A stretch of DNA of 64,000 nt. It comes from Leucoraja ocellata (Eukaryota). Under the pieces are notes generated by a model. The model did not search any database, was not told where the DNA came from, and saw only the letters and a program-made list of their open reading frames with translations. The position numbers and the translations under genes are program-made. Below, piece after piece: positions 11,014 to 49,729 of the stretch. Numbering within the stretch: the first letter of the stretch is position 1; the number at the start of each line of letters is the position of its first letter. The stretch spans positions 186,001 to 250,000 of the forward strand of contig JAWMAR010000836.1 of NCBI GenBank assembly GCA_036785375.1. Direction: 5' to 3'.

Positions 11014-11236
11014 ATGGGTGTGGTAGTAGCAGATGGTAAAGGCCCAAGAGCGGAAATCCCCGATGGTGGCTGGGGCTGGGCTGTTCTCATTGGCTGCTTC
11101 GTCATCACCGGATTCTCTTACGCTTTTCCGAAAGCCGTCAGCGTTTACTTCAAGGAACTAATCAAGGAGTTCCATATTGGGTACAGTGATACAGCATGGA
11201 TCTCATCCATTGTGCTCGCCATGTTGTACGGAACAG
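11014..11236 (+). CDS. slc16a3: Monocarboxylate transporter 4, coding exon 1
   Basis: Acceptor ctctgcAG at 10997-8, Kozak accATGg, MCT signature [27 protein letters not shown], donor GTcagt at 11237; 223 nt, phase 1. Confidence 0.96.
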
Positions 11237-13572: not shown

Positions 13573-13716
13573 GACCGATATCCAGTGTACTTGTCAATCG
13601 CTTTGGTTGTCGTCCTGTGATGATGGTGGGAGGTTTATTTGCATCAGCGGGTATGATCCTGGGGTCACTGTGCACCAGCATCATCCAGATCTACCTTACG
13701 GTTGGCGTTATGACTG
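13573..13716 (+). CDS. slc16a3: MCT4 coding exon 2
   Basis: ttctaccAG|ga..., (G)[20 protein letters not shown]...VMTG, donor GTaagg at 13717; 144 nt, phase 1-1. Confidence 0.96.
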
Positions 13717-13768
13717 GTAAGGAGCTGTTAAAGCTAAAATGTAACTTTTTTTTAAATAAAGCTATATA

Positions 13769-15001: not shown

Positions 15002-16415
15002 TACATGGATATTAGAAATACGATCTGGGCCACTTAGGAAAGGATGAGGAACATCTGTAGGGAATGGTTCGTAAGTTCATTGCTGACCTGAAATGGTGAT
15101 CGTAGTAAGGGTCAGCCAGACTAAAGAAGGGTTCAGACACAAGGCCTTGCCTACTCCTTTTCTCCAGAGATGCTGCCCTGACCCACTGAGTTACTCCAGC
15201 ATTTAGTCTATCGTTTATTGTCACGTGTACAGAGTTATCGTGACTTTTGTTGCATGCGGGAAGACTATACACAATTGCAATCAAGCTGTCCACTGTGGTG
15301 TACAGATAAAGGGAATAACATTTTGTGCAAATTAAGTCGGGTAAATTGTCAGTTACTACCTTTTCATTTGGAAGGTAAAATCTTGTTATTGTCCACTGGT
15401 ACCAAGAATCACACACATCTACAACACTACTTCACCTATGATAATGTCAAATTAACCTCCCTTGGGTAGCTTACAACCCAACACTATGAACAATGAATTC
15501 TCCAATTTTATGTAACATCCCAATCAGCCCCCGCCCCCCCCCCCCCTCCCCCACCTTCCCTGTTTCCCTGTCTCCCACCTAGACAACATTAATTTCTCCT
15601 AATATCCCCATCTCCATCCACCCGCTCTGGCTTCCCATTTCAGTCCCCTTTCCTCGCCTCGCACCTTTTTATCTTTTCATCACTGGCCTTTTTCCAATCC
15701 ATCTGCCAATTATACTCTTCCTTGCTGGTATCTGGCTATCACTTGCCAGTCTTTGTCCCACCCCACCTATCTCTTCCAGCTTTCTCCCCACTACTCATCA
15801 GTCCGAGGAAGTATCTAGACCTGGAACATCACCAATTCACATCCTCCAGAAATGCTGCCTGACCCGAGTTACTCCAGTATTATACACAAAAATGCTGGAG
15901 AAACTCAGCGGGTGCAGCAGCATCTATGGAGAGAAGGAAATAGGTAACGCTTCGGGCCGAAACCGAAGGAAATGGGTAACTCCAGTATTATGTTTTTTTG
16001 TAAACCAACATCTGCAGTTCCTTGTCTGCAGAGATATCTTGATCGGTGCAGTGAGTTTGCCTTTGGCTCCAAACTCCAGTGCCCTTGCGCATTTCAATTC
16101 TCGTGTGGGAGGTTGTAAAAATAGCCTGCGCTGGGTCCAGTTGTCTAGTTAGAGTTGAAGATGCTGTTAGTGTTTGTACAGGCAGCAGAGCAACTGTATC
16201 CAGCCAATCGACCAAATTCCAATTTCCTATTGATCATCTTTTCACTAAAGATCAATATAGAATGAAAATGAGGATTTGAACTCGCAGGAAAGATTTAGGG
16301 GGAGATATACTATGATATTTAATATATCTGCATCCATGTATGCTTGCTTAAAATGAAACTGATTTCATTTAATTGTGAATAATCTCTCCTGATTACCCTA
16401 AAAGAAGTAATCAAA

Positions 16416-16733
16416 GGTGGTACAGTGATGCAATGGGTAGTGCTGCTGCCCCTAAAGTGCCAGAGACTCTGGTTTGATCCTGACCTCTGGTGCTGTCTGT
16501 GTGGAGTTTTCCCATTCTCCCTGTGACTGTGTGGGTTTCCTCCGGGTGCTCTAGTTTCCTTCCCACATTGTAAAGACGTGCGGTTTTGTAGATTAATTGG
16601 CTGTAAACTGTTCCTAGTGTGTAGGGAGTGGATGAGGAAGTGGGATAAACACAGAACTAGTGTGAACGGGTGATCGATGGTCGGCGTTGACTCGGTGGGC
16701 TGAAGCTTCCATGCTCGAAACTAAAACTAAACC
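16416..16733 (+). mobile_element. HE1-like V-SINE
   Basis: tRNA-like head, V-domain ctgtctgtgtggagttt...tgggtttcctccgggtgctc, (ctaaa)n tail. Other copies at ~5495-5860, 11370-11610, 12690-12910, 29252-29540, 29958-30245, 31320-31605, 32860-33070(-), 56400-56500(-), 57650-57905. Confidence 0.85.
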
Positions 16734-16753
16734 AAACTTGTTTTTTCTCCCAG

Positions 16754-17533
16754 GTCTGGGTCTGGCCTTGAACTTTCAACCATCCCTCATCATGATAAAC
16801 CGCTACTTTGACAAGCGACGGCCGTTAGCTAATGGCCTGACTGCAGCTGGGAGCCCCGTCTTTCTGTGTACCCTCTCACCGTTGGGCCAAGTACTGATCA
16901 AGACGTACGGGTGGCGAGGGGGCTTCCTCATCTTTGGGGGTCTGCTGCTCAACTGCTGTGCCTGTGCAGCTCTGATGAGACCACTGCGGCCAAGCGGCAA
17001 AGAGAAACCCCAGCTGAAAGAGGAGAAGGAGACACCAGTGAAGAAGCACAAAATGCAGCTGCTGGATTGCTCTGTTTTCAAGAACCGAGGTTTTCTCATT
17101 TACACCATCGCGGCGTCCGTCATGGTCTTTGGACTCTTTGTTCCTCCTGTCTTCGTCGTAAACTATGCAAAAGACTTGGGAATACCAGACACAGACGCTG
17201 CTTTCTTGTTATCCATCTTGGGATTCGTCGACATTTTCGCCCGCCCGCTCTGCGGTATTCTCGCGGGTACAAAGTTCATGCGCCCCCGATGTGTATATTT
17301 CTTTGGCTTTGCAATGCTCTTCAACGGGATCACTGATTTGGGCGGCTCCTTTGCTCACGATTATGTCGGACTGACAGTGTTCTGTATTTTCTTTGGAATG
17401 TCCTATGGAATGGTGGGCGCCCTGCAGTTCGAGGTGTTGATGGCCATTGTTGGAACCCAGCAGTTCCCCAGTGCGATCGGACTGGTGTTGTTGATGGAAG
17501 CCATGGCCGTGTTGGTAGGCCCACCAGGTGCTG
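16754..17533 (+). CDS. slc16a3: MCT4 coding exon 3
   Basis: ttttttctcccAG, [28 protein letters not shown]...DIFARP...LVGPPGAG, donor GTaagt at 17534; 780 nt, phase 1-1. Confidence 0.97.
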
Positions 17534-17998
17534 GTAAGTACATGTGCACGCGTGTGCGAGCGTGTTCACTCCAACATTAACAAGAAACAAAGGTGGGGGG
17601 GGGGGGGGGGGAAATTGAACAAAATGTTTCAATGACACAAATGGGGGGCAGGGGGGAGGAAGGAAGGAAGAATCATAAATGTGATTCCAGTGAGTCTATT
17701 CACCAGAGCAATCGGGAGTGGAGATACCAGAAGCAAAAACAAAGACTGGGAAGGGTAGATGTGGTGGAGTTGCAGACAATGAGGAAGGCAGTCAGAAGAA
17801 AAAGAGGGCTATAGACCAGCTGCAGAATAGGTGGAGAAATGGCAGATGGGGTTTAACCTGGGGAAGTGCAAGGTGTTGCAAACTGGGAGGTTGAATTCAA
17901 GGAGGGAGTATACAGTTAATGGAAAAACCGTTGCAGGCATTGATTGCAGAGGGATAGAAACATAGAGTCCAAGTTCATCGGTCACTATGGTGACAATA

Positions 17999-31150: not shown

Positions 31151-33864
31151 CACTCCCGACCCCTTGTGACTCGTGTAAAATCACCTTTTTGTGATTTTAT
31201 TGTTCCGATACGATAAACTTTATTCATCCCCGGAGGGCAATTGGTCACAACACACAACAACGTACACAGACTTGAAATTAAAAGTGAAAAAAGAAAAGGA
31301 CAAGTCACCTGCTTAAAAAGGGCCGTGCAGTGTCGCAGCTGATAGAACTGCTGCCTCACAGCCCTGGAGACCAAGGGTCGACCCTGAAATGTGGTGCTGT
31401 CTGTGTGGAGTTTGCACGTTCTCCCTGTGACCATGTGGGTTTTGTCTGCTTTCCTCCCACATCCCAAAGCCGTGTGGGTTTGTTGGCCTCTGTAAATGGC
31501 CCCTAGCGTGTAGGAAGTGGAATAACATAGAACTAGTGTGATCGCTGGTCGGCGTGGACTCGGTGGGCGGAAGAGACGGTTTCAATGATGTATCTCTGAA
31601 CTAAAACCAAGCAATATCGTGAAAATGATTTATCCCTGTCCAAACAATGCCTATTCAATCCAAACTTAAACTGAGATTGATGATGTCAGCTGGTGAGTAT
31701 CCTGAGTGATTCTAATCACCTCGTTTTGTTGGGCAATTCAGATTGTATTGTCACTACGATAATTACCCTCGAGAGGACAAAACTGTTGCTGAGAGATGTA
31801 TTAACATCCTGGTCATTAATTTCTAACCAAGCACCATGAATATTTGGCTATGTGTGCATTCTTAAAATGGATCATAGTCCTACCACATGGAAATAAGCCC
31901 TTTGGCCCAACTTGTCCACACCAATCAAGATGCCCCATTTAAGACAGTCCCATTTGGCCCATATCCCTCTAAACCTTTCCCTTCCATGTATCTGTTCAAG
32001 TGTCTTTTAAATATTGCTGTAGTACCAGCCTCAACTGCACGCACCACCCCCTGTGTAGAAAAAGTTGCCTCTCGTTAAATATTTTCCCCTCTTTAAACCA
32101 ATGACCTCGGGTTCTTGATTCCCGTACCATGGGGGTAAAAGACTCTGTGCATTCACCCTGTCTATTACCCTCATGGTTTGACACACTTCTCTTAAGATCT
32201 CGCCTTGGCCTCCTGCACTGTAAGGAATGAAGTCCTAGCCTGCCCAACCTTGCCCGATAGCTCAGGCCCCGGCAGCATCCTTGGACATCCTCTCTGCAAT
32301 CTGCTGCTTAATTACATTGGGTGGTGGGTCTGAAATTTACACGAATTTAATTTGCGTTCTAAAATGTGTCGCTTAATGGTAAGACATTAAAGGTTTGGCA
32401 CACAGTTAGTTCATGGATTAAAGTGCATTAGGGGATAGATAGATTGTAAAGGCCACATCTACATGGCTATCAGTGCAGGCATTAAAGCCTGATTAGAACA
32501 TGCATTGTTCAATAGTGATTGCAGATTAATATTGGCTCGGTAAATAGTGTACAATTTACTGGCTGCTCTCCCTGCGAATGGTCAGTTATTCGGGATGCCT
32601 GGTTCATAGTAAATTACTTTCATTCATTTGAAATAACAGAGCACATTAACCTCTGTTCATGACATCATGTGGCTTAGTAAGGCCAAGCTGTGGATTAGTA
32701 GGGTCACACTGTCAACTGAATCAGAAGCGTCTGGTTTCCACGCAGACTCCAGACATTTGAACACACACGGTCTCTACCAACCCCATTCACACATAAATAT
32801 TGCCCTTTACATGAGACAGCTGGATTTTATATTTAGGAGACACAGGCTGTTCGGCCCACAAGCAATTACCCTATACTAGTTCTATCCTACACACGAGGGA
32901 AGGTTTATAGAAGCCAATTAACCTAGAATCCTGGACCTATTTGGAATGTAGGAGGAACATGGAGAAAACTCACATGATCAAGGGAAGAGCATGTAAACTC
33001 CATACAGACAGCACCTGTGGTCAGGATTGAACCCGGGTCTCTGGTGCTGTGAGGTTACCCCACTGTGTCGCTGCCTCTTGATGGATTTACTGTAGAAGCT
33101 GCTATGCCACTGCCTTCAGTTGCAGAATAAAATCTTCCGTGTGACCAGACAGGTCACTCTGCTACTGGAAGGAGGTCATTAAGTTGGAGAGAGTGCAGAG
33201 GAGATTCACCAGGATGTTACCTGGGTGTGCGGGCTCGAGTTACAGGGGGAGTTGTGATAGGATGGGACTTTTATTCTTTGGAACACAAGAGGCTGAGGGG
33301 TGACCTCATTGAGGTGTACAAGGTCACGAGGGGCATGGATAAAGTGAATGCTCAGTTTTGTTTAGGTTGGAGAATTCTAAAATTAGAGGGCACAGGCTTC
33401 AGGTACGAGGGGAGATTTAATAGGGCCACCTTCTTCATTCACAGGGTAGTCTGTATCTGGAATGAACTGCCAGAGGAAACTATATAAGTGTATAAAATAA
33501 GGGTGTCAAAGATAACTAGGAGAAGGCAGGAGAATGGGGTTGAGAAGAGAAAAATAGATCAGCTATGATTGAATGGTAGAAGTTACTCAATGGGCTGAAT
33601 GGCCTCATTCTGCTCCAATGCCTTATGGTCATACAAGTTGGCATTAGTTTATTATTGTTGCATGTGCTGAGATATGGGACAAAGCTTTTGTTTGTGGGTC
33701 AAATCATACTATACATTAATACAATCAAGCCATTCGCAAGCACAACAGATTATTTTTCTCTTCCCACCACCTGTGTGCAGAATAGTTTGATCTGAGTTTG
33801 AAGGCACTGGGCCTGTACCTGCTGGAGTTTAGAAGGATGAGGGGGTACCTCATTGAAACTTACT

Positions 33865-36205
33865 CAGGGCTGCCAAGAATGGGTGAGAGTTGGGAATTAG
33901 AAATTGCAAGGGGCCAAGCCCAATGGCGCGTAGCTCCTGTGGGGTGGGGTGGGGTGTTGGAGCTTGAAATTGTGCAATCTGGTGCACACTTTAGCGAGTC
34001 TTTTAACTTGCACTTGAATACAATATGCTTTAAATTGGATTAGCTATGAATAAGGTTAGGCTAAATTACATTCCACAGTAGAGCCAGGTTCCGATTGACA
34101 GGTGCAGCACATCAATGATCTTAGTGTATTCATGTGTGGAAATCAGATTTTAATCAAATACTTGCTCATGTTGACCAACCTGGGTCCCACTGCACACCGG
34201 GTACTCCTGACCCTGACTCCAGTTGCATACCTTCTCTCATTCCTGACCCTGAGTCCAGCCTTACACCCAGTACTATTCCAGACCTTGACTGGATGCACAC
34301 TTGCCTTGCTCCTAGCCCCTCTGCATTGACAATATATCTGGCCCACACATAAAGCCCCACAACTGACCCCCTGGACATAACCTATTACGTACAAGTCCAC
34401 AGGTGCTTATCTACTGCAGTAATCTTTTATGGGGCACTTCACTGACCCATTGGCGTCCTTGTTATCTAACATGCTAGTTACTTTGTCAAATAAGTCATCA
34501 ATTGGTTGAACACAATTTCTCATCCCTAAAATTATACTCACTCAGCTGTATAAGTATTCTGTTACCATTTCCTTCATTTTCCTAACAAACTGTCCTGAAG
34601 TCATTTTCACCCCCAATATCTCCAGTATTTTGGTGTCTTCCTCTCAGCTGGGACTTTTCCGCAAGATCTAATAACTATATATTTAAGCAATATTATTCTA
34701 TTAAATGTGTTAATATGAGAGTACATAATATTTTCTGTGGTATTCATAATACATATCATTCAAAATGATAAAAAGATCTTTATTTTGATTGCACCTACCA
34801 ACATGCGTACATTATTATATTACAGTTAATATGTACCAAAGGCAATTTTTTGTTCCATTGCTCATGAGATATTTTTGTTTCATTAATTAAACGAGATTGG
34901 AGACATTTCTATTCAACTTGTCAAAGGTATTTGAGGGGGGGTTTAGAAATAGTCAGTGAGGTAAACAAACATAATAGTTGTGTGGCAAATGACAATAGTG
35001 CTACCTTCCCAATATTTAATTGGAGGAAATAATGGGTTATCGGGGCTGTATGTTGTGACACCTTGCATGTCATTTTAATATTACACTTATCCCATCCCCC
35101 TGGATATTCCGGATTAATAAATTAAGGTTTTGTCAACTAATTACAAATCAATAACATTAGCCAACTCAGAAACATGAAGCGCTGAGCATTGGAATCCAGA
35201 CATCACGGACAACTGCCCTCTGTTCCCGCTCACATCTGGCAGTGCTCTCCGTCTGAACCAGGGGCCACGGAGCGATTTTGAAAGTGGGGAGGCTGAGCGA
35301 TCACTGATCACTGGCCTTGGGGATACACAGTGAGGGAGTGGAGCAACCGAGTGGGGAGAGGGTGTGGAAGGGGGGGGGGGGGGTGTCCCCTCTCATGGTA
35401 GGGACTTTTGAAATTTGATATATTAAAATCATGTTTTAGTGCATTGTAGAAGTATGATTTCAATGTTTTTTGTTTAAGTATTTAAGGTATAAAGTATGTT
35501 TAAGGGGTAACTTTTTCCACACAAAGGTGTATGGAATAAGTTGCCGGAGGAGGTAGTTGAGGCAGGGACTACCCAACATTTGAGAAACAGACCGATACAT
35601 GGATAGGACAGGTTTGGAGGTATGGACAAAAAGCAGGTAGCGTAGCTGGGACATGTTGGCGGGTGTGGGCAAGTTGTGCCGAAGGGCCTGTTTTCACACT
35701 GTATCACTCTATGACTACATTATACCTCCACCATGCATGAATGCTTCAAAATCAAGTGGCTTGAGTTTTATTTCCATATACTCAAGCATAGAAACATAGA
35801 AAATAGATGCAGGAATAGGACATCGGCCCTTCGAGCCAGCACTGCCATTCAATATGATCATGGCTATTCATCTAAAATCAGTACATCTTTCCTGTTTTTC
35901 CCCCATATCCTTTGATGTTGTTAGCCCCAAGAGCTAAATGTATCTCCCTTAAAAACATCCAGTGAATTGACCTGCACTGCCTTCTGTGGCAGAGAATTCC
36001 ACAGATTCACAACTCTCTGCGTGAAGAAAGTTTGTCCTCATCTCAGTCCTAACTGGCCCCCCCTTTATTCTTAAACTGTGACCCATGGTTCTGAACGCCC
36101 CCAACATCGGGAACATTTTTCCTGCAGTTACAGTAAGTGAAAATCTAGCAGGCAAGCAGGATGCTTCCTCCATCCACCCCCATTTGAAGCTCACTATCTG
36201 CCACC
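33865..36205 (+). repeat. Copy 1 of the CAGGGCTG element (right-truncated)
   Basis: Colinear with 42768-45610 over >2 kb with indels, including shared embedded CR1 fragments. Confidence 0.85.
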
Positions 36206-36444
36206 TTATTCTGCAGGTTTCCAACTTAATGTCTTCATTAAAAAGACAACCAATTCTTCATATTGTGTTCCATATAATTTGCAATGTCATTCACACTTGG
36301 CACAGGAGCAATTCTTGTCTTCTACTAGACCATGCTTTTGTAGAACGACACAATTTTGTAAACTAATATATCCGACTGATAGCTCTTTCAAGAGCAAGTT
36401 GGGCCGAAGGGCCTGTTTCCACGCTGTATCATTCAATTGTATCT

Positions 36445-36511
36445 TCATTCTTTGTGCTTTTGAGAGTTTCCTGGCTCTCTCCATCGACACTTGCATACAA
36501 ATGTTACAACA
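36445..36511 (-). CDS. Uncharacterised membrane protein, last coding exon (end of TM and cytoplasmic tail)
   Basis: tctttattgttcttcgacAG; phase-2 join gives C-VVTFVCKCRWREPGNSQKHKE*, continuing the hydrophobic helix followed by basic stop-transfer residues. Confidence 0.65.
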
Positions 36512-37412
36512 CTGTCGAAGAACAATAAAGATTAGATTATTCAGAAGATATTTCTTAAACTTTCCNNNNNNNNNNNNNNNNNNNNNNNNNNNNNNNNNNN
36601 NNNNNNNNNNNNNNNNNNNNNNNNNNNNNNNNNNNNNNNNNNNNNNNNNNNNNNNNNNNNNNNNNNNNNNNNNNNNNNNNNNNNNNNNNNNNNNNNNNNN
36701 NNNNNNNNNNNNNNNNNNNNNNNNNNNNNNNNNNNNNNNNNNNNNNNNNNNNNNNNNNNNNNNNNNNNNNNNNNNNNNNNNNNNNNNNNNNNNNNNNNNN
36801 NNNNNNNNNNNNNNNNNNNNNNNNNNNNNNNNNNNNNNNNNNNNNNNNNNNNNNNNNNNNNNNNNNNNNNNNNNNNNNNNNNNNNNNNNNNNNNNNNNNN
36901 NNNGACAGGTTGGAATGATCTTTGCAAGGGCCATCTGTGAGTTTTCTTCCAATACATCCTAGATTGGGAGGGAGAGATAGATCAGGCATGATTGAATGGT
37001 AGAGTAGACATGATGGGCCGAATGGCCTAATTCTGCACATATTGTCCATTGTCTCTGGGGAACGATGTGCGGGCTCTGGACAGAGGGTCCAGGAACAAGT
37101 GAGTTAACGTTTACGATGAGCGTTTGTCGGCGCTGGGCCTGTACTCGCTGGAGTTTAGAAGAATGGGGGGGGGGGGGGCACCTAATTGAAACTTCACCCG
37201 AACAGTGAAAGGCCCGGATAGAGTGGATGTGGAGAGGATGTTTCCACTGGTGGGAGAGTCTAGGACCAGAGGGCGCAGCCTCAGAATTAAAGGACGTTCC
37301 TTTAGGAAGGAGATGAGGAGGAGAGAGAGAGGGAGAGGGGGAAGAGAGAGAGAGAGGAGGAGGAGGAGGTAGGGAGGGAGGGAGGGAGGGAGGGAGAGAG
37401 AGGTAAACATAC

Positions 37413-37485
37413 CATCCAACGATAACGATGATGATCGGAGTGACGATCCCAACACAAATCCAATATATGGCATCAGTTGACAGAC
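37413..37485 (-). CDS. Uncharacterised membrane protein, transmembrane exon
   Basis: tttcccatccAG / GTatgt; LSTDAIYWICVGIVTPIIIVIVG; 73 nt, phase 1-2. Confidence 0.7.
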
Positions 37486-39007
37486 CTGGATGGGAAACAT
37501 GACTTCAATATCTGATCCCTCCCCCTCCCTCTTTCTCTCTCTCCTCCCCCCATCTCTCTCTCCCCATCTCTCTCACCCCCCTCCCCCCCCACCCTCTCTC
37601 TCTCTTCTCTGTCTCAGTGGATTGAGTTTAGAAGTTGGGAGGTCACGTTGCAGTTGTACAAGATGTCGGTGAGACCATGTTTAGAATATTGTGTTCAGTT
37701 CTGGGCACCGCATTACAGGAAAGATGTCGTCGAGCTTGGAAAGGGCGCGGAGAAGATTTACGAGGATGTTGCCGGGACTCGAGGGGCATGAGCTACAGGA
37801 AGAGGTTGGGGCAGGCGGGGACACTATTCCTTGGAGCTCAGGATGATGAGCGGCAATCGTATAGAAGCGTACAAAATCACTAGAGGAATAGATCGGGTAG
37901 ACGCACAGTCTCTGTCCAGAGTAGGGAAAACAAGGACCAGAGGACATGGGTTTAAGGTGGGGGGGGGGAGGGAGATTTAATAGGCCAACATTTCCACACA
38001 GAGGGTGGTAGGTGTACGGAATGAGCTGCCGGAGGAGGTAGTTGAGGCTTGGACTAGCTCAGATAATCCCACAGATTCACCACCCTCTGGCTAAAGAAAT
38101 TCCTCCTCATCTCCTTCCTAAAGGATCATCCTTAAAACATCACCATAATTAATGAGACTGTTTAAACACCTTAAGTTTAATTAAATGCTATGTTAGGGAG
38201 GAATGGAATTATATATCATAATTCCAAGAATTATCCCTAAATGTAAAAATTGCAATTCACAGTCAGAAGAAAAAAGCTACCTTGCATTAAACAGTCCATG
38301 AGTGGGGAGAAGAAAATGTTTCTTTCCCGCAACAGTTATATTGCAAATGTTTTAATTTTACAATATAACTACCAGGATATCCTATGTATATATATATATA
38401 TCATTTATAAATCACACAATATATATAGTGCATATAATATAAACATTCATGCAGACTTATCCATAACAATCTGTCCTGGAATTCTCTAACTCAAAAATAG
38501 TCCCATTATAAAAGTTTGATTTATAATACATCTTGTGATTCGAGGACCAGAGGACACGGGTTTAAGGTGGGGGGGGGGGGGGGGGGTAAGATTTAATAGG
38601 ACAACTTTTCCACACAGAAGGTGGGTGGGTGTATAGAACGAGCTGCCGGAGGAGGTAGTTGAGGCAGGGACTATCACTACACTTGGACAGGTACATGGAT
38701 AGGACAAGTTTGGCGGGATATGGGCCAGACGTGGGCAGCAGGTGGGACTAGTGTAGATGGGACATGTTGGGCCGAAGGGCCTGNNNNNNNNNNNNNNNNN
38801 NNNNNNNNNNNNNNNNNNNNNNNNNNNNNNNNNNNNNNNNNNNNNNNNNNNNNNNNNNNNNNNNNNNNNNNNNNNNNNNNNNNNNNNNNNNNNNNNNNNN
38901 NNNNNNNNNNNNNNNNNNNNNNNNNNNNNNNNNNNNNNNNNNNNNNNNNNNNNNNNNNNNNNNNNNNNNNNNNNNNNNNNNNNCCCTCCCTCCCTCCCTC
39001 CCTCTCT

Positions 39008-39155
39008 CCACTTTTCCACCCAGAGTGTTGTGAATCTGTGACCATTTGGGACTGTGATGAGGAGAAACTTTTCCACCCAGAGTGTTGTGAATCTGTGGCC
39101 ATTTGAGACTGCGATGAGGAGAAACGTTTCCACTCAGAGTTGTGAGTCTGTGGAA
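39008..39155 (+). repeat. CR1-derived ~57-bp tandem repeat (about 2.5 units, next to a gap)
   Basis: Unit ttttccacccagagtgttgtgaatctgtg.ccattt..gactg.gatgaggagaaac. Confidence 0.75.
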
Positions 39156-39926
39156 TTCTCTGCCTCAGAGGACAGTGGAGGCCGGTTCTCTGGATACTTT
39201 CAAGAGAGAGCTAGATAGAGCTCTTAAACACAGTGGAGTCAGGGGATATGGGGAGAAAGCAGGAACGGGGTACTGATTGTGGATGATCAGCCGTGATCAC
39301 ATTGAATGACGGTGCTGGCTCGAAGGGCCGAATGACCTACTCCTGGCACCTATTGTCTATTGGTTGGTGCAAAATTTGAACCACCATAGAAACCTCTCTC
39401 TCTCTCTCTCCCTCCATACACCCACCACCTTCTGTGTGGAAATGTTGCCCCTCAGGTTCCTATTCAATTTCTCCTGCCCCCTGTATCTCTCACATTAAAC
39501 CCATGTCCTCTGGTTCTTGATTCCCCTACTCTGGGCAAGTGACTCTATGCATCTACACAATCTATTCCTCTGGTGATTTTGTACACCTATATAAGATCAC
39601 CTCATCCTCCTGCACTCCAAGGAATATAGTCCCAGCCTGCCCCAAACTCTCCCTGTAGCTCAGGCCCCTCGAGTCCCAGCAACATCCTCATAAATCTTCC
39701 CCGCGCCCTTTCCAGCTCGACGACATCTTTCCTGTAAACGATGCCCCAGAACTGAACACAATACTCTAAATGCGGCCTCACCACCAATTGTCAGGAAATT
39801 AACAGTCAGGAAAAAAAGCTGTCATGCATTTGAACAGTCCAAAGCAGGGGAGATAAAATTGTTTCTTCCCCACAGCATGCAGGAAACATTCTTATTAAAT
39901 TATATAATATGATTAGCAGAACATAC

Positions 39927-39942
39927 TCAATATTGCCATGAT
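39927..39942 (-). CDS. Candidate 16-nt microexon of the membrane protein gene
   Basis: tctttgtttatAG / GTatgt; IMAIL+a, phase 0-1, which is the phase needed to join exon 3 to the TM exon. Confidence 0.35.
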
Positions 39943-40120
39943 CTATAAACAAAGACATTGGACCTACGTTTGAAAATTAGCCGTGTTTCAATGCCATTCT
40001 GTGAATAAAATTGAACAGAGTTAATAACTTTGTATAAAAATGAGAGAGAGGGAGAGAGAGTGATAGAGAGGGAAAGGGGGGAGGGAGAGAGAGATTTAAT
40101 GATATTTAGTTATTACTTAC

Positions 40121-40216
40121 ACAAAAATAATGACGTTCAATAATATGGCATCCAGTAAACGCTGTTTTGTTTATCATCGGTGGGATACAACCTAGATCAT
40201 CGCAAACTACTGTTTC
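40121..40216 (-). CDS. Uncharacterised membrane protein, exon 3 (Cys-rich)
   Basis: ctgtctctccAG / GTaagt; only frame 0 is open: ETVVCDDLGCIPPMINKTAFTGCHIIERHYFC; 96 nt, phase 0-0. Confidence 0.7.
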
Positions 40217-40487
40217 CTGGAGAGACAGGGAGAGAGAGTGAGAGAGGGGAGAGGGAGGGAGAGGGAGAGGGACAAAGGGGAAGAGACGGGGGGGGGGGGG
40301 GGTTGAGACAGAGGGGGAGGAGAGACAGGTAGAGGAGGCATTAGTATCAGTTTCTCATACTCCCAAAATTGCTCAACCCCTCCACCTCCCTCTTCCCCCC
40401 CCCTCCCCAATCTCTTGCTCTCTCCCCCCCTCCCTCTCTCTCTCTCTCTCTCTCAATCAAAGTTACACAGAGATAAAAAATACTTAC

Positions 40488-40597
40488 ATTAATTAAAATA
40501 TCATCTCGTTGGCAGTTTTGGAAAGACTGGATTTGTGGGATAGCTTGAACTCCTGAATCTTTACACGTGTAATGTTTTTCCTCTGTGATGACATTTC
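40488..40597 (-). CDS. Uncharacterised membrane protein, exon 2
   Basis: ttttggtttAG / GTaagt; (G)NVITEEKHYTCKDSGVQAIPQIQSFQNCQRDDILIN; 110 nt, phase 1-0. Confidence 0.7.
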
Positions 40598-41082
40598 CTA
40601 AACCAAAATAGTGCATTTGAGTTGAGTGTAGTTTATTGTCCCGTGTACCGAGCGAGGTACAGTGAAAAGCTTTCTTGTCACGTGCTCTCCAGTCAGTGGG
40701 AAGACTGTACATGATCACAATCAAGCCGTCCACAGTATAGATACAGGATGAAGGGAATAACGTTTAGTGCAAGGTAAAGTTCATTAAACTAAAGAGTTTC
40801 CTGTTGAACTACAATCATCTTCTAAAATCATCATCACATTTGTCCTCCCTCACTCTCACTTACAAAGTGTCTTCCTCTCTCTCCCCCGCTCTCTCTCTCC
40901 CTCTCTCTCCCCTATGTCTCTCTCCCTCTTTCTCCCCCTCTCTCGCTCCCTCTTTCACCCCCCTCCCGCACTCTTTCTCTCTTTCCCCTCTCTCTGTGCC
41001 CCCCTCCCTCACGAACACACTCAAAACTCTCATTCACATACACACACAGTAAAAGTTAAGGGAATGGGGAGGGAGGGAGTGT

Positions 41083-41519
41083 GGAAATTTCTCGGAACAA
41101 CGTACTCTCTCCCTCCCTCTCTCTCTCCCCTCCCTCTCCTCTCTCCCCTCTCTCTCTCCCTCTCTCTATCTCTCTCAAACTTTCCGAAACTTTCCAAGAC
41201 TCTCTCAAAACTTTCTCAACCTTCCCCACCCCCTCCCTCCCTCACCCTCCCTCCCCCCCTCCCTCCCTCACCCTCCGACTCCTTTCACCTGAAGAGAAGA
41301 CGTAAGTGAGAGTGAAGAGGGAACAGAGTAATATTCCAGAGGCGAAATTCTTCCAGGAGACATTTCTTCCAGACATCTTCCCGTGGAGTGCAGAACGTGG
41401 AGAATGGCGATCAGCTGGAAGGTGAGGGAGTGAGAGGCCTGGAAACTTCCTCTCTCCCTCTCTCCGCCTGTCGGTGTGGGGAGAGAGCAGAGCGTGTTGG
41501 GGCGTGTAGTCCTGACTCA
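41083..41519 (-). promoter_or_regulatory. Putative promoter / first-intron motifs of the membrane protein gene
   Basis: AP-1 TGACTCA 41513-19, GC-box-like GGGGCGTGT 41499-507, NF-kB-like GGAAACTTCC 41441-50, overlapping GGAAATTTC and GAS TTCTCGGAA 41083-97; motif matches only. Confidence 0.35.
41289..41376 (-). CDS. Uncharacterised type I membrane protein, exon 1 (signal peptide)
   Basis: aagATG MSGRNVSWKNFASGILLCSLFTLTYVFSS-G, donor GTgaaa; 88 nt, phase 1. Confidence 0.65.
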
Positions 41520-41547
41520 CGCTCGTACACGCACGCAAACACATCAA

Positions 41548-42767
41548 CGTGCCCTCCATAATGTTTGGGACAAAGACCCATCATTAATTGGTTTCTTTAT
41601 TTAGTTGCCTCTGTGCTCCACCATTTGACATTTGTAATTCAATAAATCACACGTGATTAAGGTGCACATTGTCAGATTTTAATAAAGGCCATTTTAATAC
41701 ATGTTGGTTTCACCATGTAGAAATTACAGCACTGTTTATACATAGTCCCCCCATTTTAGGGCACCATAATGTTTGGGACACAGCAATGTCATGTCAATGA
41801 AAGTAGTCAATAATAGGCAACAGACAATAGGTGCAGGAGTAGGCCATTCGGCCCTTCGAGCCAGCACCGCTATTCAATGTGATCATGGCTGATCATCCCC
41901 AATCAATACCCCGTTCCTGCCTTCTCCCCATATCCCCTGACTCCGCTATCTTTAAGTGCCCTATCTAGCTCTCTCTTGAAAGTATCCAGAGAGCCGGCCT
42001 CCACCGCCCTCTGAGACAGAGAATTCTACAGATTCACAAATCTGTGGGTGGAAAAGTTTTTCCTCGTCTCCGTTATAAATGGCTTACCCCTTATTCTTAA
42101 ACTGTGGCCCCTGGTTATGGACTCCCCAACATTGGGAACATGTTTCCTGCCTCTAGCGTGTCCAAACCATTAACAATCATATATGTTTCAATGAGATCTC
42201 CTCTCACCCTTCTAAACTCCAGAGTGTACAAGCCCAGCCGCTCCATTCTCTCAGCATATGACAGTCCCGCCATCCCGGGAATTAACTTGGTGAACCTACG
42301 CTGCACTCCCTCAATAGCAAGAATGTCCTTCCTCAAATTTGGAGAACAAAACTGTACACAATACTCCAGGTGTGGTCTAACCAGGGCCCTGTACAACTGC
42401 AGAAGGACCTCTTCACTCCTATATTCAACTCCTCTTGTTATGAAGGCCAACAGGCCAAAACTGCAACAATACTCCAGGTGTGGTCTCACCAGGACCCTGT
42501 ACAACTGCAGAATGACCTCTTTGTTCCTATACTCAACTCCTCCTGTTATGAAGGCCAACATGCAATTGGCTTTCTTCACTGCCTGCTGTACCTGCATGCT
42601 TACTTTCATAGACTGATGAACAAGGACCCCCAGATACTGTTATACTTCCCCTTTTCCCAACTTGACACCATTTAGAAAGTAGTCATATTTAGTATTTTGT
42701 TGCATATCCATTGCATGCAATGACTGCTTGAAGTCTGCGATTCATGGACATCATCAGTTGCTGGCTG
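41548..42767. mobile_element. Tc1-like IR/DR transposon end, interrupted by CR1 and truncated by the CAGGGCTG element
   Basis: GTGCCCTCCATAATGTTTGGGACA with direct repeat CATAATGTTTGGGACA at ~41557 and ~41765; sequence resumes at 42675. Confidence 0.6.
41810..42674 (-). mobile_element. CR1 LINE 3' fragment
   Basis: RT C-terminal ORF (LYRALVRPHLEYCVQF, with an internal ~108-bp duplication); 11-bp TSD GAAAGTAGTCA at 41799 and 42675. Confidence 0.9.
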
Positions 42768-45700
42768 CAGGGCTGCCAACATTGGGTGAGAGTTGGGAGT
42801 GAGAAATTGTGAGAGACCAAGCCTAAGGGACCGTAGCGACCGGGGGTGGGAGGGGGGGGGGGGGGGGGGGGGGTGGGCAAGAGGGACACCCCCCCCCCTC
42901 CCATTGGTACAGAGCTTTTGCATTTTTCAGTTTGAAATTGTGCAATCTGGTGCATACTGTAGCGAGTCTTTTAACTTACACTTGAATGCAATATTTATGC
43001 TTTAAATTGAATTAGCTATGAACAAGGTTAGGCTAAATTACATTCCTAATTATATTCCACAGTAGAGCCAGGCTCTGATCAACAGGTGCAGCACATGAAT
43101 GATCTTAGTGTATTCATGTATGAAAATCAGATAATAATCAAACACTTGGTCCATGTTGACCAACCTGGGTCTCACTGCACACCTGGTACTACTCCTGACC
43201 CTGACTCCAGTTGCATATCTTCTCTCATTCCTGACCCTGAGTCCAGCCTTACACCTGGTGCCCTATTCTACCCTGATCATAGCTCCTTATCTGCTTAGGT
43301 TCCCAGTGCTGAACATTCCCATTGTCCCAGCTTTGACTGCACACCTTGTACTATTCCAGACCTTGACTCTGGATGCACACTTGGCCTTGCTCCTAGCCCC
43401 TCTGCATTGACAATATATCTGGCCCACACATAAAGCCCCATATCTGACCTATTTAACCTATTACGTTCAAGTCCACAGGTGCTTATCTACTGCGGTAATC
43501 ATTTATGGGGCAATTCACAGACCAAATTATCTATAACATAATTTGCTACATCCATTGGCTTCCTTGTTATCTAACATGCTAGTTACTTTGTCAAATAAGT
43601 CATCAATTGGTTGAACACAATTTCTCATCCATAAAATTATACTCACTCAGCTGTATAAATATTCTGTTACCATTTCCTTCATTTTTCTAACAAACTGTCC
43701 TGAAGTCATTTTCACCCTCAATATTTTCAGTACTTTGCTATCTTCCTCTCAGCTGGGGCTTTTCCGAAATGCAAAGTCTAATAACTATATATTTGAGCAA
43801 TATTATTCTATTTAATGCGTTAATATGAGAGTACATAATATTTTCTGTGGTATTCATAACACAACAATGATAAAAATATCTTTGTTTTGATTGTGCCTAC
43901 CAACATGCATACATTAATATATTACAGTTAATAAGTACAGAGGGCAAATTTTTGTTCCATTGCTCCCCATTCCCAATTACTTTTACTTTGAAGTGATTGA
44001 AATCCAAGTGAAGTTGAAATGGCATCAGAAAAATAAAACCTCTGGAATGGATGATATTCATTACATGGTTGGTTGGAGTCAGTATCAGCACAATTACTAT
44101 ATTAAACTTTGAATCTTCAGATGTCCTGGTTCAAGTTAAAACTAAAGACAGATAATAACCTTCTCACATGTTCCCCTACAAGTATCTCTGTCACTCCTTT
44201 AAAATATGCCCCTTCTTTGAACAAGCTCTTAAACATCGCATCTGAATCAGTTTCCATCTGATTACACTCCATGCGGATGTTCATCTACGTGTTCAATTAA
44301 TCAAACAATGAGATTGGGGACATTTCTATTCAACCTGTCAAAGGAATTGGGGGAGGGGGGTTAGAAATAGTCAGTGAGGTAAACACACAGAATAGTTGTG
44401 TGGCAAATGACAATAGTGCTACCTTCCCAATATTTAACTGAAGGAAATAATGGGATGTCAGGGCTGTATATTGTGACAGACAGCCTGACACCTTGCATGT
44501 CATTTTTAATATTACACTTATCCCATCCCGCTGGATATTCCGGATTAATAAATTAAGGTTTTGTCATCTAATTACAAATCAGACTAATTACAAATCAATA
44601 ACATTAGCCAACTCCGAAACACGAAGCGCTGAGCATTGGAATCCAGACATCACGGACAACTGCCCTCTGTTCCCCGCTCACATCTGGCAGTGCTCTCTGT
44701 TGAACCAGGGGCCACGGAGCGTTTTTGAAAGTGGGGAGGCTGAGCGATCACTGATCACTGGCCTTGGGGATACCCAGCGAGGGAGTGGAGCAACCGAGTG
44801 GGGGTGTCCCCCACCCACCGTAGGGACCTTTTTGAAATTTGATGTATTAATATCATGTTTTAGTGCATTGTAGAAGTATGATTTCAATGTTTTTTGTATG
44901 AAGTATTTTTAAGAGGTAACTTTTTAAGGGGTAACATTTTTCACATAAAGGGTGATGGGTGTATGGAACAAGCTGCCAGAGAGGTAGTTGAGGCAGGGAC
45001 TATCCCAACATTTGAGAAACAGTTAGACTGATACATGGATAGGACAGGTTTGGAGGTATGGACCAAAAGCAGGTGGCGTAGCTGGGACATGTTGGCGGGT
45101 GTAGGCAAGTTGTGCCGAAGGGCCTGTTTTCACACTGTATCACTCTATGACTACATTATACCTCCACCATGCATGAATTCTTCAAAATCAAGTGATCGAG
45201 TTTTATTGCCATATATTCAAGCATAGAAACATAGAAAATAGGTGCAGGAATAGGCCATTCGGCCCTTCGAGCCAGCACCGCCATTCAATATGATCATGGC
45301 TATTCATCTAATATCAGTACCTCTTTCCTGTTTTTTCCCCCATATCCCTTGATTTTGCTAGCCCCATGAACTAAATGTAACTCTCTCTTGAAAACATCCT
45401 GTGAATTGGCCTCCACTGCCTTCTGTGGCTGAGAATTCAACAGATTTACAACTCTTTGTGTGAAGAAAGTTTGACCTCATCTCAGTCCTCACCATCCTAC
45501 CCTTTATTCTTAAACTGTGACCCCTGGTTCTGAACTCCTCCAACATCAGGAACAATTCTCCTGCAGTTATATTAGTGAAATCTACCATTTGAAGGCCACT
45601 ATCTTCCACCGTTTCTACCCAGTGCTTGGTACTTACTTCCAGCAGCCCCTGGTTGTCTTCCAGGATGCACCGAGCCGCAGCCTGATTCATGCCGGTCACC

Positions 45701-47203
45701 TGGGGGAATTTGGCACTGAGACTCTCACGTCAGCGGCGCAACGCTTCCGACGGCCCGGGACTCTTGCACTTAGGCTGCTCCATGGCCGTAGTTGTAGCAA
45801 GTGACTCGCCAGCCCAGCAAACACTTGCCAGCCCCGGCTCCCCGTCCGCATCTGTCCCACCAATACGGTGGGCGGCGCGACTCACGTCGCAGCGGCCTCT
45901 GCAGTCCGTCTGTCTTTTTGTTATTTTTTGTCCCGTTTTAATGCAGTNNNNNNNNNNNNNNNNNNNNNNNNNNNNNNNNNNNNNNNNNNNNNNNNNNNNN
46001 NNNNNNNNNNNNNNNNNNNNNNNNNNNNNNNNNNNNNNNNNNNNNNNNNNNNNNNNNNNNNNNNNNNNNNNNNNNNNNNNNNNNNNNNNNNNNNNNNNNN
46101 NNNNNNNNNNNNNNNNNNNNNNNNNNNNNNNNNNNNNNNNNNNNNNNNNNNNNNNNNNNNNNNNNNNNNNNNNNNNNNNNNNNNNNNNNNNNNNNNNNNN
46201 NNNNNNNNNNNNNNNNNNNNNNNNNNNNNNNNNNNNNNNNNNNNNNNNNNNNNNNNNNNNNNNNNNNNNNNNNNNNNNNNNNNNNNNNNNNNNNNCCCTG
46301 CACGGAGAACCCGACCTTTTCCCTGTCGGGTCTCCGTTGTCGTTGGGGCTGCAACGTGGAGCGGCCTCCAGCAGGAACGTCCTGAGTCTCCAGTCGCGGA
46401 GCTGCGGAGCTACTCACCATCGTGGAGCTGGCCGAGTCCGGAGCGGGAGGAGCGGTGGTGGCGCTCGGCTGCGACCCGACCCCCGGGGATTCGGAGGCTC
46501 CGGCCGCGGGTCCGGTGGACGATGATATCAGGTGCCCGCGGGTCCCTGGTGGGAGACCGCTTATCGAGGCTTCTGCAACGGCGACTTCTCCTGCCCGAGT
46601 CCCGGGGTCGAGGAGTGCCTGGAGTGGGGCCTTACATCACCGCCCGGCGCGGCTTCAACGGCTGTGGGACTTTGCTAGAGTCCGCCGGGGGCTCCAACAA
46701 CAAGACCCGGAGCGTGGCCTTGCACCGCCCGGCGCGGCGTTAATGGCAGCGGGACAATTGCCATCGCCCGCCGGGGGCTTTGACTCTGACATCGGGAGGG
46801 GAATGGGAAGTGCAGGGGAGAGATAAGTTTTTTGGCCTTCCATCACAGCGAGGAGGAGATGCGCTGTGATGGATGTCTATGTAAATTGTGTTGTGTCTTG
46901 GGTCTTTTTTTTCACATGTGTATGACTGCAGAAACAACATTTCATTTGAGCCTCTATGAGGTTCAAGTGACAAATAAATTGTATTGTGTATTGTATTGTG
47001 TTGTGTTGTACTTCTGCTTCCATCCCAACCGCAGCCCCGGCTCTCCAACACCCGCAGCCCATGCAGTTGATGAGTTTTGAAATTGTCGTTGATCACAGAA
47101 TTTCTCACGACAGAGCGTGATAAATTTGTGGTCAGCGTGTGAGCATGAGAATTTGTCGAAATGCGTGATTCTCATGCTCAATGCGTGAGAGTTGGCAGCC
47201 CTG
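42768..47203 (+). mobile_element. Copy 2 of the CAGGGCTG element, with right end
   Basis: CAGGGCTGCCAAC start; subterminal GCGTGA/TGAGA repeats at 47100-47190; ends GTTGGCAGCCCTG; spans a gap. Confidence 0.75.
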
Positions 47204-49729
47204 ATTTACTGAATAGTGAACGGCCTGGATAGAGAGGATGTTTCCACTAATGGGAGAGTCAAGGACCAGAGGCCACAGCCTCAATAAAAGGACGGACCTT
47301 TAGGGGAACGAGAAGAGGAGGAATTTCTTTACTCAGAGGGTGGTGAATCAGATGGCTGTGGGGGCCAAATCAATGGATATTTTTAAGGTGGAGATTGACA
47401 GGTTCTTGATTAATTTGGGTGTTTGGGGTTATGGGGAGTAGGCAGGAAAATGGGATCGAGAGGGAAAGATAGATCAGCCGTGATTGAATGGCAGAGTGGA
47501 CTTGATGGGCCGAATGGCCTAATTGTGTTCCTATGACTTATAATTGGTGAACTTCTCCAGCATCAGCACTATTTGCTTTGGCTGAGGAACGGAAGGTACA
47601 CGTGCAGATGGTACACAACGGCACTGGGCATCAAATCAACGCACACAATCAAAAGGCAATTGGACAGTTTGATAATGGTGCACTTGCGCACCAGCTGGTG
47701 AGAAGTAGATTTCATCTCCTGTGTTGCATAACATTGTAGCAATCGGGTGCTGCCAGCGTTGGTGTCGGCTTGTAATTGTCACGTGTATCGAGATGCAGGG
47801 AAAAGCCTTTGCGTGAAACAGCTGGATGATATCTAGTCTCATCATATTACAGTAAACCCTTATTATAATATATCCACAGTGGGGGGGGGGGGGGGGGGGA
47901 GAATGGTGTCCGTTATTGCCCATTGTCCGCTATAATCAACTAATAATCTATGGCATTTCATGTCTACAGACCCAACAATAACATTTAGGATGAGCAACAC
48001 CTGCACTGACAGAGGCGTCTTTTTTCAGCTGAAACTTTAAATCAAAGCCGTACCTGCCATGTGCTACAAAGCTCCAACGTCTCAACACAGCAATACAGGC
48101 AGTGAGGCGAGCACGGTCTAGGGAGCTGCCAGGGGTGGTGTCGGCAGCCCGGCTTGGCGGTGAAGATCGGAACGTCCGTCCGTTATATACTTGATTAATA
48201 CAGGTGTCAGAGGTTATGGGGAGATGGGTTAGAGAGAGAGAGAGAGAGTTAGATCTAGCTCTTGGGGCTAAAGGAATCCAAGGATATGGTGGGAAAGCAG
48301 GAATGGTATACAGATTTTAGATGATCAGCCAATCAGCGATGAAGGGCCGAATGGCCTACTCCTGCACCTATTTTCTATGTTTCTATGACTGTTCAGTAAT
48401 TTGATAATAGCGGGTAGATGCGGTTTTCTGAGTCTGGTCCTTCATGCTTTTAAGCTTTAGTACCTTCTACCCAATGGGAGAGGAGAAAAGAGGGGATGAA
48501 TGGGGTGAAAAATATCCTTGAATATGTTGGCTGCCTTCTCAAGGCAGCGTGAAGTGCAGACGGACTTGATGGTGGGGGTTGGGGCGAATGCAACACAACA
48601 CGTTCCCTCCAGAGGGGAAGGCAAGGTGTGGAAATCCAGTGTTTGGACTTAAAACAATGCATTGCTGTGTGTGCAGTGGAAAGGCCACCCTGAGGGCAAG
48701 TGTTCAATTATGTTTTACTAAAATCAAACGCTGCTTTATTCATCCCTGTTTATTTACATATCATAACCGCACGAGCTTACCCTACCCAACTAAAACTATC
48801 CAGGAAACACTTCGAGAAACTGCCAGACCCGCTCAGTTTGGACTTGCCTTTGTGGAGATAGTGATCACTGTATTCACCAAAGATCCAACATTTCCAGGCT
48901 GCAGTGACACGAACCTGCCTGAAAATCAGAACAAAGCAGATGCCAAAAACCTGAATCAAAGCGAGAAACAACAGGTCATTCTGCACGGAAACAGGCCCTT
49001 CAGCCCAACTTGCTTATGCCGACCAAGAAGTCCCATCTACACTAGTCCCAATGTAGAAACAAGGAATGCAGATGCTGATTTACAAAACAAGACAGAAATT
49101 GCTGGAGCAACTCAACGGGTCAGGCAGAATCCCCGGGGAACACGGCTAGGTGACATCTTGGGTCAGGACCCTTCTTCAGACTGACCCGAAACGTCACGTA
49201 TCTATGCTGTGTTGAGATGCTGCCTGACTTGACGAGTCACTCCAGCAATTTGTGGCTTCTACACTCATCCCAAGATAAACAGATAATGTTTAGGTCCAAG
49301 ACTCTGTCCTTGAACAGTGGGAGCCGCCATGCTTCTCCAGCATGTGCTGTATTTAGGAAGGAAGTTTGCACTTTATTGGTTCCAACACATCTGGTCCAAT
49401 TCACATCTGCATCTGAGAGGCAGCACGGTGAGTGAGACACCAACACTGGCTGCCAGCATGGTACAATGTAATTAGAGTCAAACAGCACGCAAACACACTC
49501 TCCAGCCTATTCCATCCACGCTAAACAAGGTGCCCCATCCAAGCGAGTCCCATTAGACCTTGCTTGGCCCAATCCCTCTAAACCTGTCCTATCCATGTAC
49601 GTGTCCAAATGTCCTTTACATAATGTTATAGTACCTGCCTCAACTACCTCCTCCAACAGTTTGTTCCATATACCTACATGTGTGTGAAAACGTTGCCCCA
49701 TTGGGTTCCTATTAAATGTTGTCCCTTAA

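Follow-up and report, generated by a model that had tools for sequence, protein, structure and literature searches.

A single insertion between slc16a3 and csnk1d

Positions 33865-47203 of a 64,000-nucleotide stretch of the genome of the skate Leucoraja ocellata (C836:186001-250000, referred to here as the window) hold a block of 13,339 bp that ends on both sides in the terminal inverted repeats (TIRs) of an abundant, ~3.3-kb non-autonomous DNA transposon, and that carries a gene of eight exons, whose product is a type-I membrane protein with an LILR/KIR-like immunoglobulin (Ig) domain. From the sequence, it is well supported that the block is one insertion, bounded by the left end of one element copy (copy 1) and the right end of another (copy 2), and there is good evidence that the whole, intron-containing gene arrived from elsewhere with the transposons, by a route that is less certain. 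We consider it probable (roughly 0.62) that two neighbouring copies supplied one outer end each to a transposase, which either moved the block whole or transposed reversed ends with re-replication; this figure is for both variants jointly, which are about equally likely. A single insertion and a gene that is not native to the site are indicated because the flanks rejoin into one CR1 element, the target site duplication (TSD) has a length found in the family, a Tc1 element within the block is cut without its remainder, and paralogous pieces of the block occur elsewhere with the Tc1 uncut.

The boundaries are those given in the initial annotation. A motif search of the window placed CAGGGCTGCCAA at 33865 and 42768 and TTGGCAGCCCTG at 47192-47203, and the block lies between ACTTACT and ATTTACT, which are identical at 6/7 positions. 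In contig C805, which represents the other haplotype, the right TSD has lost 2 bp and is without the C>T change of the window copy, a difference consistent with a common ACTTACT. When one 7-mer is removed, the flanks align to other CR1 copies through the join, as had been proposed: 29 of 52 high-scoring segment pairs (HSPs; several of them are one CR1 fetched twice) cross it by at least 30 bp on each side. One of the 29 is gapless across all 51 columns, in many the alignment is broken 25 bp right of the join by an 11-bp gap, and small indels occur near the join in some. An insertion hotspot in CR1 was rejected as a chance source of this rejoining, since the background is low. Apart from one member on contig C31, none of the 37 left ends and two of the 47 right ends examined touch this ~400-bp CR1 stretch, neither of the two at the site of the block. 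The C31 member, which turned up in a search aimed at the CR1 junction, has a 6/7 TSD and lies in a CR1, 6 bp away from the position that corresponds to the block; it illustrates the appearance of a simple insertion.

Errors of assembly are an unlikely source of this structure. Contig C805 contains no N, is collinear with window positions 34893-64000 at 95-99%, and bridges all three runs of N in the window with collinear sequence on both sides of each; of these runs, only the one of 200 N is also N in the genome contig C836. Gapless sequence runs from the left flank to 38783 in C836 and onwards to the right from 34893 in C805, so that the two cover the whole block by overlap, with the left junction seen in one contig only (C836), as C805 stops inside copy 1. 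Mis-scaffolding between the gaps, which the initial annotation had named as a danger, was therefore rejected, and so was C805 as a second insertion site, because its collinear flanks mark it as the other haplotype.

Two element copies and an interrupted Tc1 element

The two copies lie in the same orientation and align over ~2.3 kb at 86-87%. Copy 2 is complete, whereas copy 1, which had been taken for a second copy of the same kind, is not whole and lacks ~440 bp and the right TIR. At the inner junction (36205/36206) copy 1 meets the end of an unrelated interspersed repeat of ~550 bp, for which the best 40 of 611 candidates were scored and all six fetched copies reach ~370 bp further left. Both partners are thus truncated at this junction, which is blunt and has no clear microhomology. 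Copy 2 also holds a later insertion (45860-47010) that is GC-rich, has a simple-repeat tail, replaces ~8 bp of the element, and is present in both haplotypes.

The left flank of copy 2 is Tc1 sequence, unlike its right flank. The interrupted element, described before as Tc1-like, is a true Tc1, with transposase motifs present in a sampled copy. Other copies run on past the cut point in 10/10 cases examined, and the remainder is absent from the window and from the next 40 kb to the right. The two other Tc1 copies in the window plus the 40 kb to its right were rejected as the missing remainder because both are separate and whole.

Copies 1 and 2 are close relatives. They differ at 137 of 1984 columns (6.9%), and copy 2 is nearer to copy 1 than any of the 70 members with enough overlap, for which the minimum is 7.2%. 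They share five variants seen in 0/39 members, and as high a rate occurs in four of 729 member pairs (86 member rows gave 50 with at least 1100 columns and 39 after near-duplicates were dropped), and they group together with a FastTree support of 0.955. This kinship fits a local pair of sister elements, with gene conversion possibly contributing.

Paralogous pieces of the block were found on two other contigs. Exon 2 with part of intron 1, and with no exon 1, occurs as orphan fragments at three places on C581 (547.6, 555.1 and 594.6 kb) and one on C1809 (108.8 kb). The C1809 fragment adjoins C2H2 zinc-finger genes and shares the CR1/Tc1 junction with the cargo, and one of the C581 fragments has the Tc1 in the same orientation and reads through the insertion point of copy 2. 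The DNA of the exon-2 fragments is 82-87% like the cargo, with only ~37% identity at the protein level, and the short paralogous pieces overall are at 82-92% identity to the cargo. Divergence is 8-11% between the exon-2 pieces and the cargo, 7% between copies 1 and 2, and 2-3.5% between the haplotypes. Because the paralogous pieces diverge more than the two copies and carry the Tc1 without the element, copy 2 was probably inserted later, and so the segment would have existed elsewhere without the element shortly before that insertion.

The cargo gene and its distribution

The DNA between the two copies measures 6,562 bp. Six exons with AG/GT bounds form an open frame in the window, and RefSeq models have two more, a short cytoplasmic one and an Ig exon that is present in C805 at the place of the 200-N gap of the window. 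The predicted N-terminal domain is Cys-rich and belongs to no Pfam family, and the Ig domain matches chains of LILRB2, PIR-B and KIR3DL1 weakly (E 1e-7 to 1e-3). The stretch between the ATG and the Tc1 end, with AP-1-like and GGAA motifs, is a candidate promoter.

With exon 2 as query, one match among six candidates led to LOC129708432 of Leucoraja erinacea, and with the L. erinacea protein as query, two matches among 49 led to LOC116988104 of Amblyraja radiata; over exons 1-4 the identity is 94% to the first and 80% to the second. The only further protein with the N-terminal domain among the best 150 of 533 representatives listed was A. radiata LOC116978047, which lies on another chromosome and is 45% identical to the cargo in this domain. 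An A. radiata paralogue (P0088) was not found in the L. ocellata genome with the query used. Ig exons on C4564 were rejected as parent, as they are 24-34% identical and have no N-terminal domain. CD7 and SECTM1, the mammalian neighbours of CSNK1D, were not among the 22 PDB matches, a search that did not test their orthology to the cargo gene directly. An AlphaFold model from an alignment of three sequences had a pLDDT (predicted local distance difference test) score of 30 and was unusable, and the best ESM Atlas score for residues 28-110, 0.78, is a lead only. An RNA run of unspecified tissue (5% of its reads) gave no depth over the exon-1 bin, and our literature search found no paper naming the gene by its three LOC or two XP identifiers.

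On the left of the block lies slc16a3, which encodes MCT4. Its exon in the window shares 97% identity with A. radiata MCT4 and has the same sequence as a protein in the cluster of L. erinacea MCT4. The exons of csnk1d lie on the minus strand at C836:266-278 kb, 16-28 kb past the window. In L. erinacea, the MCT4 accessions XP_055510155-157 are followed by the cargo orthologue (158-159), and in A. radiata, XP_032900468-471 are followed by the orthologue (472), in each case on a chromosome of equal length. Because these accessions are consecutive, the orthologues probably adjoin slc16a3 in both species, and this shared adjacency suggests that the event predates the split of Leucoraja and Amblyraja, for which the available part of PMC9605692 gives no date. 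We infer that the event is old and shared by L. erinacea and A. radiata, in which the presence of the element is not visible from these records. No ray or shark orthologue of the cargo gene appeared, although MCT4 proteins of rays and sharks are in the same database. Presence of the gene at this position in relatives, which the initial annotation had treated as decisive for outgroups lacking the element, probably extends to two other skates, and among rays and sharks no orthologue appeared. Contigs with exon 3 and a few differences were found in runs X13 and X9.

The haplotype substitutions in exons 2 and 3, the transmembrane exon and the last exon (window against C805) mostly change residues, and several C805 residues in those exons agree with L. 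erinacea and not with the window. C805 also has single-base losses that resemble sequencing errors. These replacement-rich differences hint at balancing or relaxed selection.

Table 1. Coordinates in the window of the block, its contents and its flanks
Feature	Position	Strand	Basis or remark
slc16a3 (MCT4) coding exons, left neighbour	11050..17577	+	Protein comparison; limits approximate
CR1 target, left half	33788..33857	+	Alignment to other CR1 copies, continuing into 47211+ when joined
Left TSD, ACTTACT	33858..33864	+	Motif search and CR1 join alignment
Copy 1: left TIR and 2.3 kb of element; right ~440 bp and right TIR absent	33865..36205	+	Alignment; 6.9% from copy 2
Terminal 185 bp of unrelated ~550-bp interspersed repeat, left-cut	36206..36390	+	Repeat search; blunt joint with copy 1
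Last coding exon with stop	36445..36511	-	Splice bounds/frame, RefSeq comparison
Cytoplasmic exon, 3' end into N stretch	36904..36958	-	17/18 residues match L. erinacea X1; acceptor AG
Transmembrane exon	37413..37485	-	Splice bounds/frame, RefSeq comparison
Stretch beside gap, not collinear with other haplotype	37995..38783	.	Holds 81-bp piece 77% like intron 4 of the cargo gene
200-N assembly gap	38784..38983	.	Ig exon at equivalent place in C805:606367-606673
Exon 4	39968..39998	-	AG/GT bounds, frame, matches RefSeq model
Exon 3	40121..40216	-	Splice bounds/frame, RefSeq comparison
Exon 2	40488..40597	-	Splice bounds/frame; paralogous fragments on C581 and C1809
Exon 1 (ATG, signal-peptide-like)	41289..41376	-	29/30 residues match L. 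erinacea
ATG-to-Tc1-end stretch, 172 bp; candidate promoter	41377..41548	-	One AP-1-like and two GGAA motifs
Tc1 left end	41549..41809	+	Alignment to other Tc1 copies
CR1 fragment inserted in Tc1	41818..42674	-	Junction shared with C1809 and C480
Tc1 continuation, interrupted by copy 2 at ~position 318 of ~1.6-kb element	42675..42767	+	Alignment to other Tc1 copies
Copy 2: complete member, both 13-bp TIRs	42768..47203	+	Collinear with 3.3-kb members L103, L107, L121
Later 1.15-kb insertion in copy 2	45860..47010	+	Missing from other members; no TSD seen
Right TSD, ATTTACT	47204..47210	+	Motif search and comparison with contig C805
CR1 target, right half	47211..47541	+	Alignment to other CR1 copies

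The transposon family

The family has many copies, whose complete members are ~3.3 kb long with 13-bp TIRs; three parts of the element were used as queries, with the best 40 of 3430, of 2482 and of 1962 candidates scored. Of 15 flank pairs compared, four have a TSD of 7 bp, three of 6 bp and two of 5 bp, and in six it is not clear, two of the last being a single insertion in two haplotypes. TSDs of 8 bp are typical of the hAT superfamily, and 0/15 flank pairs had one. The short TIRs (13 bp in copy 2 and members) are a hAT trait, and membership in hAT is a lead, since 7-bp TSDs occur in hAT families included in Repbase (PMC4455052). Members lie a median of 3.6-5.0% from the majority base at non-CpG sites, copies 1 and 2 likewise, and this suggests an old, finished burst. 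No transposase-like frame was recognised by eye in the element interior, which is a patchwork with captured CR1 ends. At 44900-45560 and in family members, CR1 3' pieces are a fixed part of the 3.3-kb body, and the family therefore appears to have amplified after capturing other repeats. Two members (L058 and L060) carry, upstream of the terminal right end, an additional piece that resembles a right end and precedes long CT-rich simple repeats. We also observed dozens of near-identical remnants of the hAT dimerisation domain, tens of kb apart on a few contigs (C719, C892, C807, C770, C824, C251 and others), which probably mark a large tandem unit containing a hAT fragment.

Copy counts in this assembly are inflated, as it apparently retains both haplotypes: many matches occur as near-identical pairs 0.1-2 Mb apart that share one contig, often on opposite strands (for instance on C91, C35, C395, C88 and C31). 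The stretch beside the gap at 37995-38783 is single-copy in this assembly. Contigs over 38087-38335 reach a depth of 404 in run X10 and 58-73 in X13, compared with ~10-20 at single-copy places. This stretch may represent a fragment from a gene family that has expanded in other skates; alternatively, the sequence next to the gap may be mis-joined.

How the gene may have reached the site

In the reading that we favour, the TIR family would have undergone a burst in an ancestor of Leucoraja and Amblyraja, during which copy 2 inserted at a different locus, into a Tc1 that lay directly upstream of a gene resembling those for Ig receptors, while a sister copy may have come to lie nearby by a local hop. 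A transposase supplied in trans would then have acted on two termini, the left one of one copy and the right one of the other, and their insertion into the CR1 between slc16a3 and csnk1d would have made a 7-bp TSD. In the first variant, the donor order would have been copy 1, gene, copy 2; the block would have been cut and pasted, and the right end of copy 1 lost by a separate deletion. In the second, the donor order would have been gene, copy 2, a gap and copy 1, and the facing (reversed) ends would have transposed into unreplicated DNA, where re-replication copied all of copy 2 and 6.6 kb of its flank and only 2.3 kb of copy 1 before the broken ends were joined bluntly. In either case the parent gene would later have been lost, or is unassembled.

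The block has features of both variants. As in a composite transposon, two copies flank host DNA, the outer ends share one TSD, and the inner end comes from a different insertion site; as in a reversed-end composite, a full element with its flank is joined internally to a partial element and the TSD lies outside. The blunt inner fusion and the missing right end of copy 1 are as expected from reversed-end re-replication or from repair-mediated capture. No second close copy or parent of the cargo gene was found in the assembly, where top candidates were scored and which may be incomplete, and this fits the cut-and-paste variant. The initial annotation held that the outer ends of the two copies had moved the block from another locus. 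Its single insertion of a non-native gene stands, whereas an intact cut-and-paste is one of several routes, and the structure of the block, seen at one locus only, would fit movement as a unit. The fullest version of our reading, in which reversed-end transposition with re-replication in a vertebrate made a skate-specific, apparently intact immune-receptor gene at a new locus, retained by at least two skate genera with the parent lost, is tentative and, as a whole, rather doubtful.

Several observations weigh against transposition by two outer ends. The donor locus, other gene copies between the same TIRs and the autonomous transposase, for all of which a search had been suggested, did not appear. 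The block was found at no second site, only as the two haplotypes C836 and C805, and a pattern search for a donor scar, in which the Tc1 remainder would come directly after a right TIR, had 0 matches. Three DNA runs of other organisms, covered over 31600-42920, displayed no empty allele or junction-spanning contig, with repeats dominant. No partner transposase was identified, the 150 matches to PF05699 (hAT) in the genome not being linked to these TIRs. Contig C480 holds an uncut unit of Tc1 with CR1 and without the gene, which weakens the link to the exon-2 fragments somewhat; C480 itself was rejected as donor, having no exon match in 40 kb. Furthermore, the support for grouping copies 1 and 2 drops to 0.757 without positions 44540-44800, and the shared sites 44583 and 44640 occur in copy 2 of one haplotype only, so that the likeness of the copies may come from gene conversion after they were juxtaposed. 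Assignment of the right end to the lineage of copy 1 or copy 2, intended to separate two-ended transposition from repair capture, gave no signal in divergence or shared variants (rho 0.07 and 0.06, n=32). Finally, copy 1 put together with what lies beyond 45610 in copy 2 gives exactly one element, and according to the text of PMC8277862, repair without any transposition is the origin of most Pack-TIRs that occur as single copies in animals.

The last two points favour a capture by repair alone, a route that we regard as possible yet unlikely and that would run by Pack-TIR gap filling or one-sided invasion. A resident element in the CR1 would have broken near 36205, and its right fragment would have invaded a family copy in the donor Tc1, and copying would have extended leftwards along this family member and on across the Tc1 and the gene (~9.4 kb) before the fragment was end-joined to the left one, so that the gene would have been copied and not transposed. 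No deletion is needed for this, the inner junction is blunt, and the interior of the family is itself a patchwork. Known captures are small, however, with a median of 224 bp, the largest human one 3,585 bp and none further up to 10 kb in the text of PMC8277862, whose Pack-TIR table may hold larger vertebrate cases. Such a capture also requires the later loss of the parent gene and its element, and does not predict the close kinship of the copies unless conversion followed.

Homologous recombination is improbable. Here, same-direction copies around the gene would have formed a circle that integrated into a resident copy in the CR1, and the right end of copy 1 would have been deleted later. This would yield copies in direct repeat with the TSD of the resident outside, and non-allelic homologous recombination (NAHR) was favoured for a CACTA-flanked supergene in Takifugu (PMC9191631, in its available part); the route needs three elements and a further deletion, and no sign of a crossover was resolved in the sequence. 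A native gene, beside which two elements landed independently with a chance match of TSD and CR1, or which only an assembly artefact places within a block, is hardly tenable: the orthologues probably adjoin slc16a3 in two other skates, family TSD length varies, the TSD match is 6/7, and the C31 member shows another insertion 6 bp off in a different CR1 copy, but the low background of other family ends in this CR1 stretch, the missing Tc1 remainder, the gapless cover by two overlapping haplotype contigs and the lack of any ray or shark orthologue among the matches speak against it.

Comparison with known systems

Two-ended transposition, the reading that we favour, has precedents, which are described here as far as the available parts of the cited papers go. 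The maize Ac/fAc composite insertions and Ac macrotransposons resemble the block in having termini from two neighbouring elements and a TSD, and in the composite insertions, too, a partial element is fused to the flank of a complete one at a junction that shows little or no microhomology, the sizes being 14-28 kb (PMC4270019; PMC9910405); the first source gives 14-24 kb for composite insertions and the second describes macrotransposon excision. In contrast to the maize cases, the skate block is vertebrate, ancient, shared between species, holds a whole gene and has a TSD of 7 bp instead of 8. In insertions of the maize type the donor keeps the reversed ends, usually on the same chromosome, and a tandem duplication or reciprocal deletion goes with the insertion, except in solo cases; among the unplaced skate contigs, no donor, tandem duplication or linkage was seen. 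Among the matches listed, the macrotransposon literature consisted of plant studies and one review of Teratorn; general background is found in PMC6431247 and PMC13689697.

Chordate cases are closer in other respects. In amphioxus, Bb-b-SDR has a host-gene copy, tesDwb, between two Zator-1 elements with outer TIRs and a TSD (PMC12905397). That unit is young, polymorphic and present at several sites, with its parent present and an antisense long non-coding RNA, whereas the skate block occupies one old site and has an open reading frame and one truncated flanking copy, and no close parent of its gene was found. The 26-kb figlaY insertion of tilapia likewise holds a vertebrate gene within TIRs (122 bp) and has an 8-bp direct repeat; unlike the cargo gene, figlaY is a truncated chimeric duplicate whose parent is present, and no two-copy composite is described in the part of the paper available (PMC13232571). 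In the Takifugu GsdfY supergene, same-orientation CACTA transposons flank relocated vertebrate genes, and the available text reports no TIRs and prefers NAHR (PMC9191631), whereas the skate block has outer TIRs, a TSD and a target that can be rejoined.

Animal Pack-TIRs, including Drosophila Ssk-FB4, are similar in that host DNA lies between the TIRs of one family, in a single copy and with a blunt or microhomology junction, but they involve one element, a 5-kb cut-off and an identifiable parent (PMC8277862). Under the definition of Tan et al. (2021), 100-5000 bp lie between parts of one element and a unique parent of at least 90% identity is free of flanking transposable elements. The skate block has 6,562 bp with an eight-exon gene, a second, internal left end, and short pieces at 82-92% as its only relatives elsewhere. 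The likeness of the cargo protein to LILR, PIR-B and KIR receptors comes from weak domain matches; unlike those receptors, the protein has one Ig domain behind a Cys-rich N-terminal domain.

Significance

The general idea that transposons can move genes in this way is already known from maize, amphioxus and tilapia. What is unusual here is an apparently intact eight-exon vertebrate gene in a two-element insertion, in at least two skate genera and with no close parent found, the frame of this multi-exon gene being kept in three skates. DNA-level gene relocations in bilaterians are inferred to outnumber retrocopies ~5 to 1, in the available part of PMC13689697. The vehicle of such relocations is rarely visible; here one can still read the target with its TSD, the two outer termini, the donor repeat that was interrupted and the internal joint. 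The genomes of skates can decide between two-ended transposition and repair capture. The block therefore offers a case, at the level of single bases, in which a TIR family would have brought an entire vertebrate gene to another place in the genome. It also suggests a route by which fast-evolving Ig receptor genes may leave their clusters.

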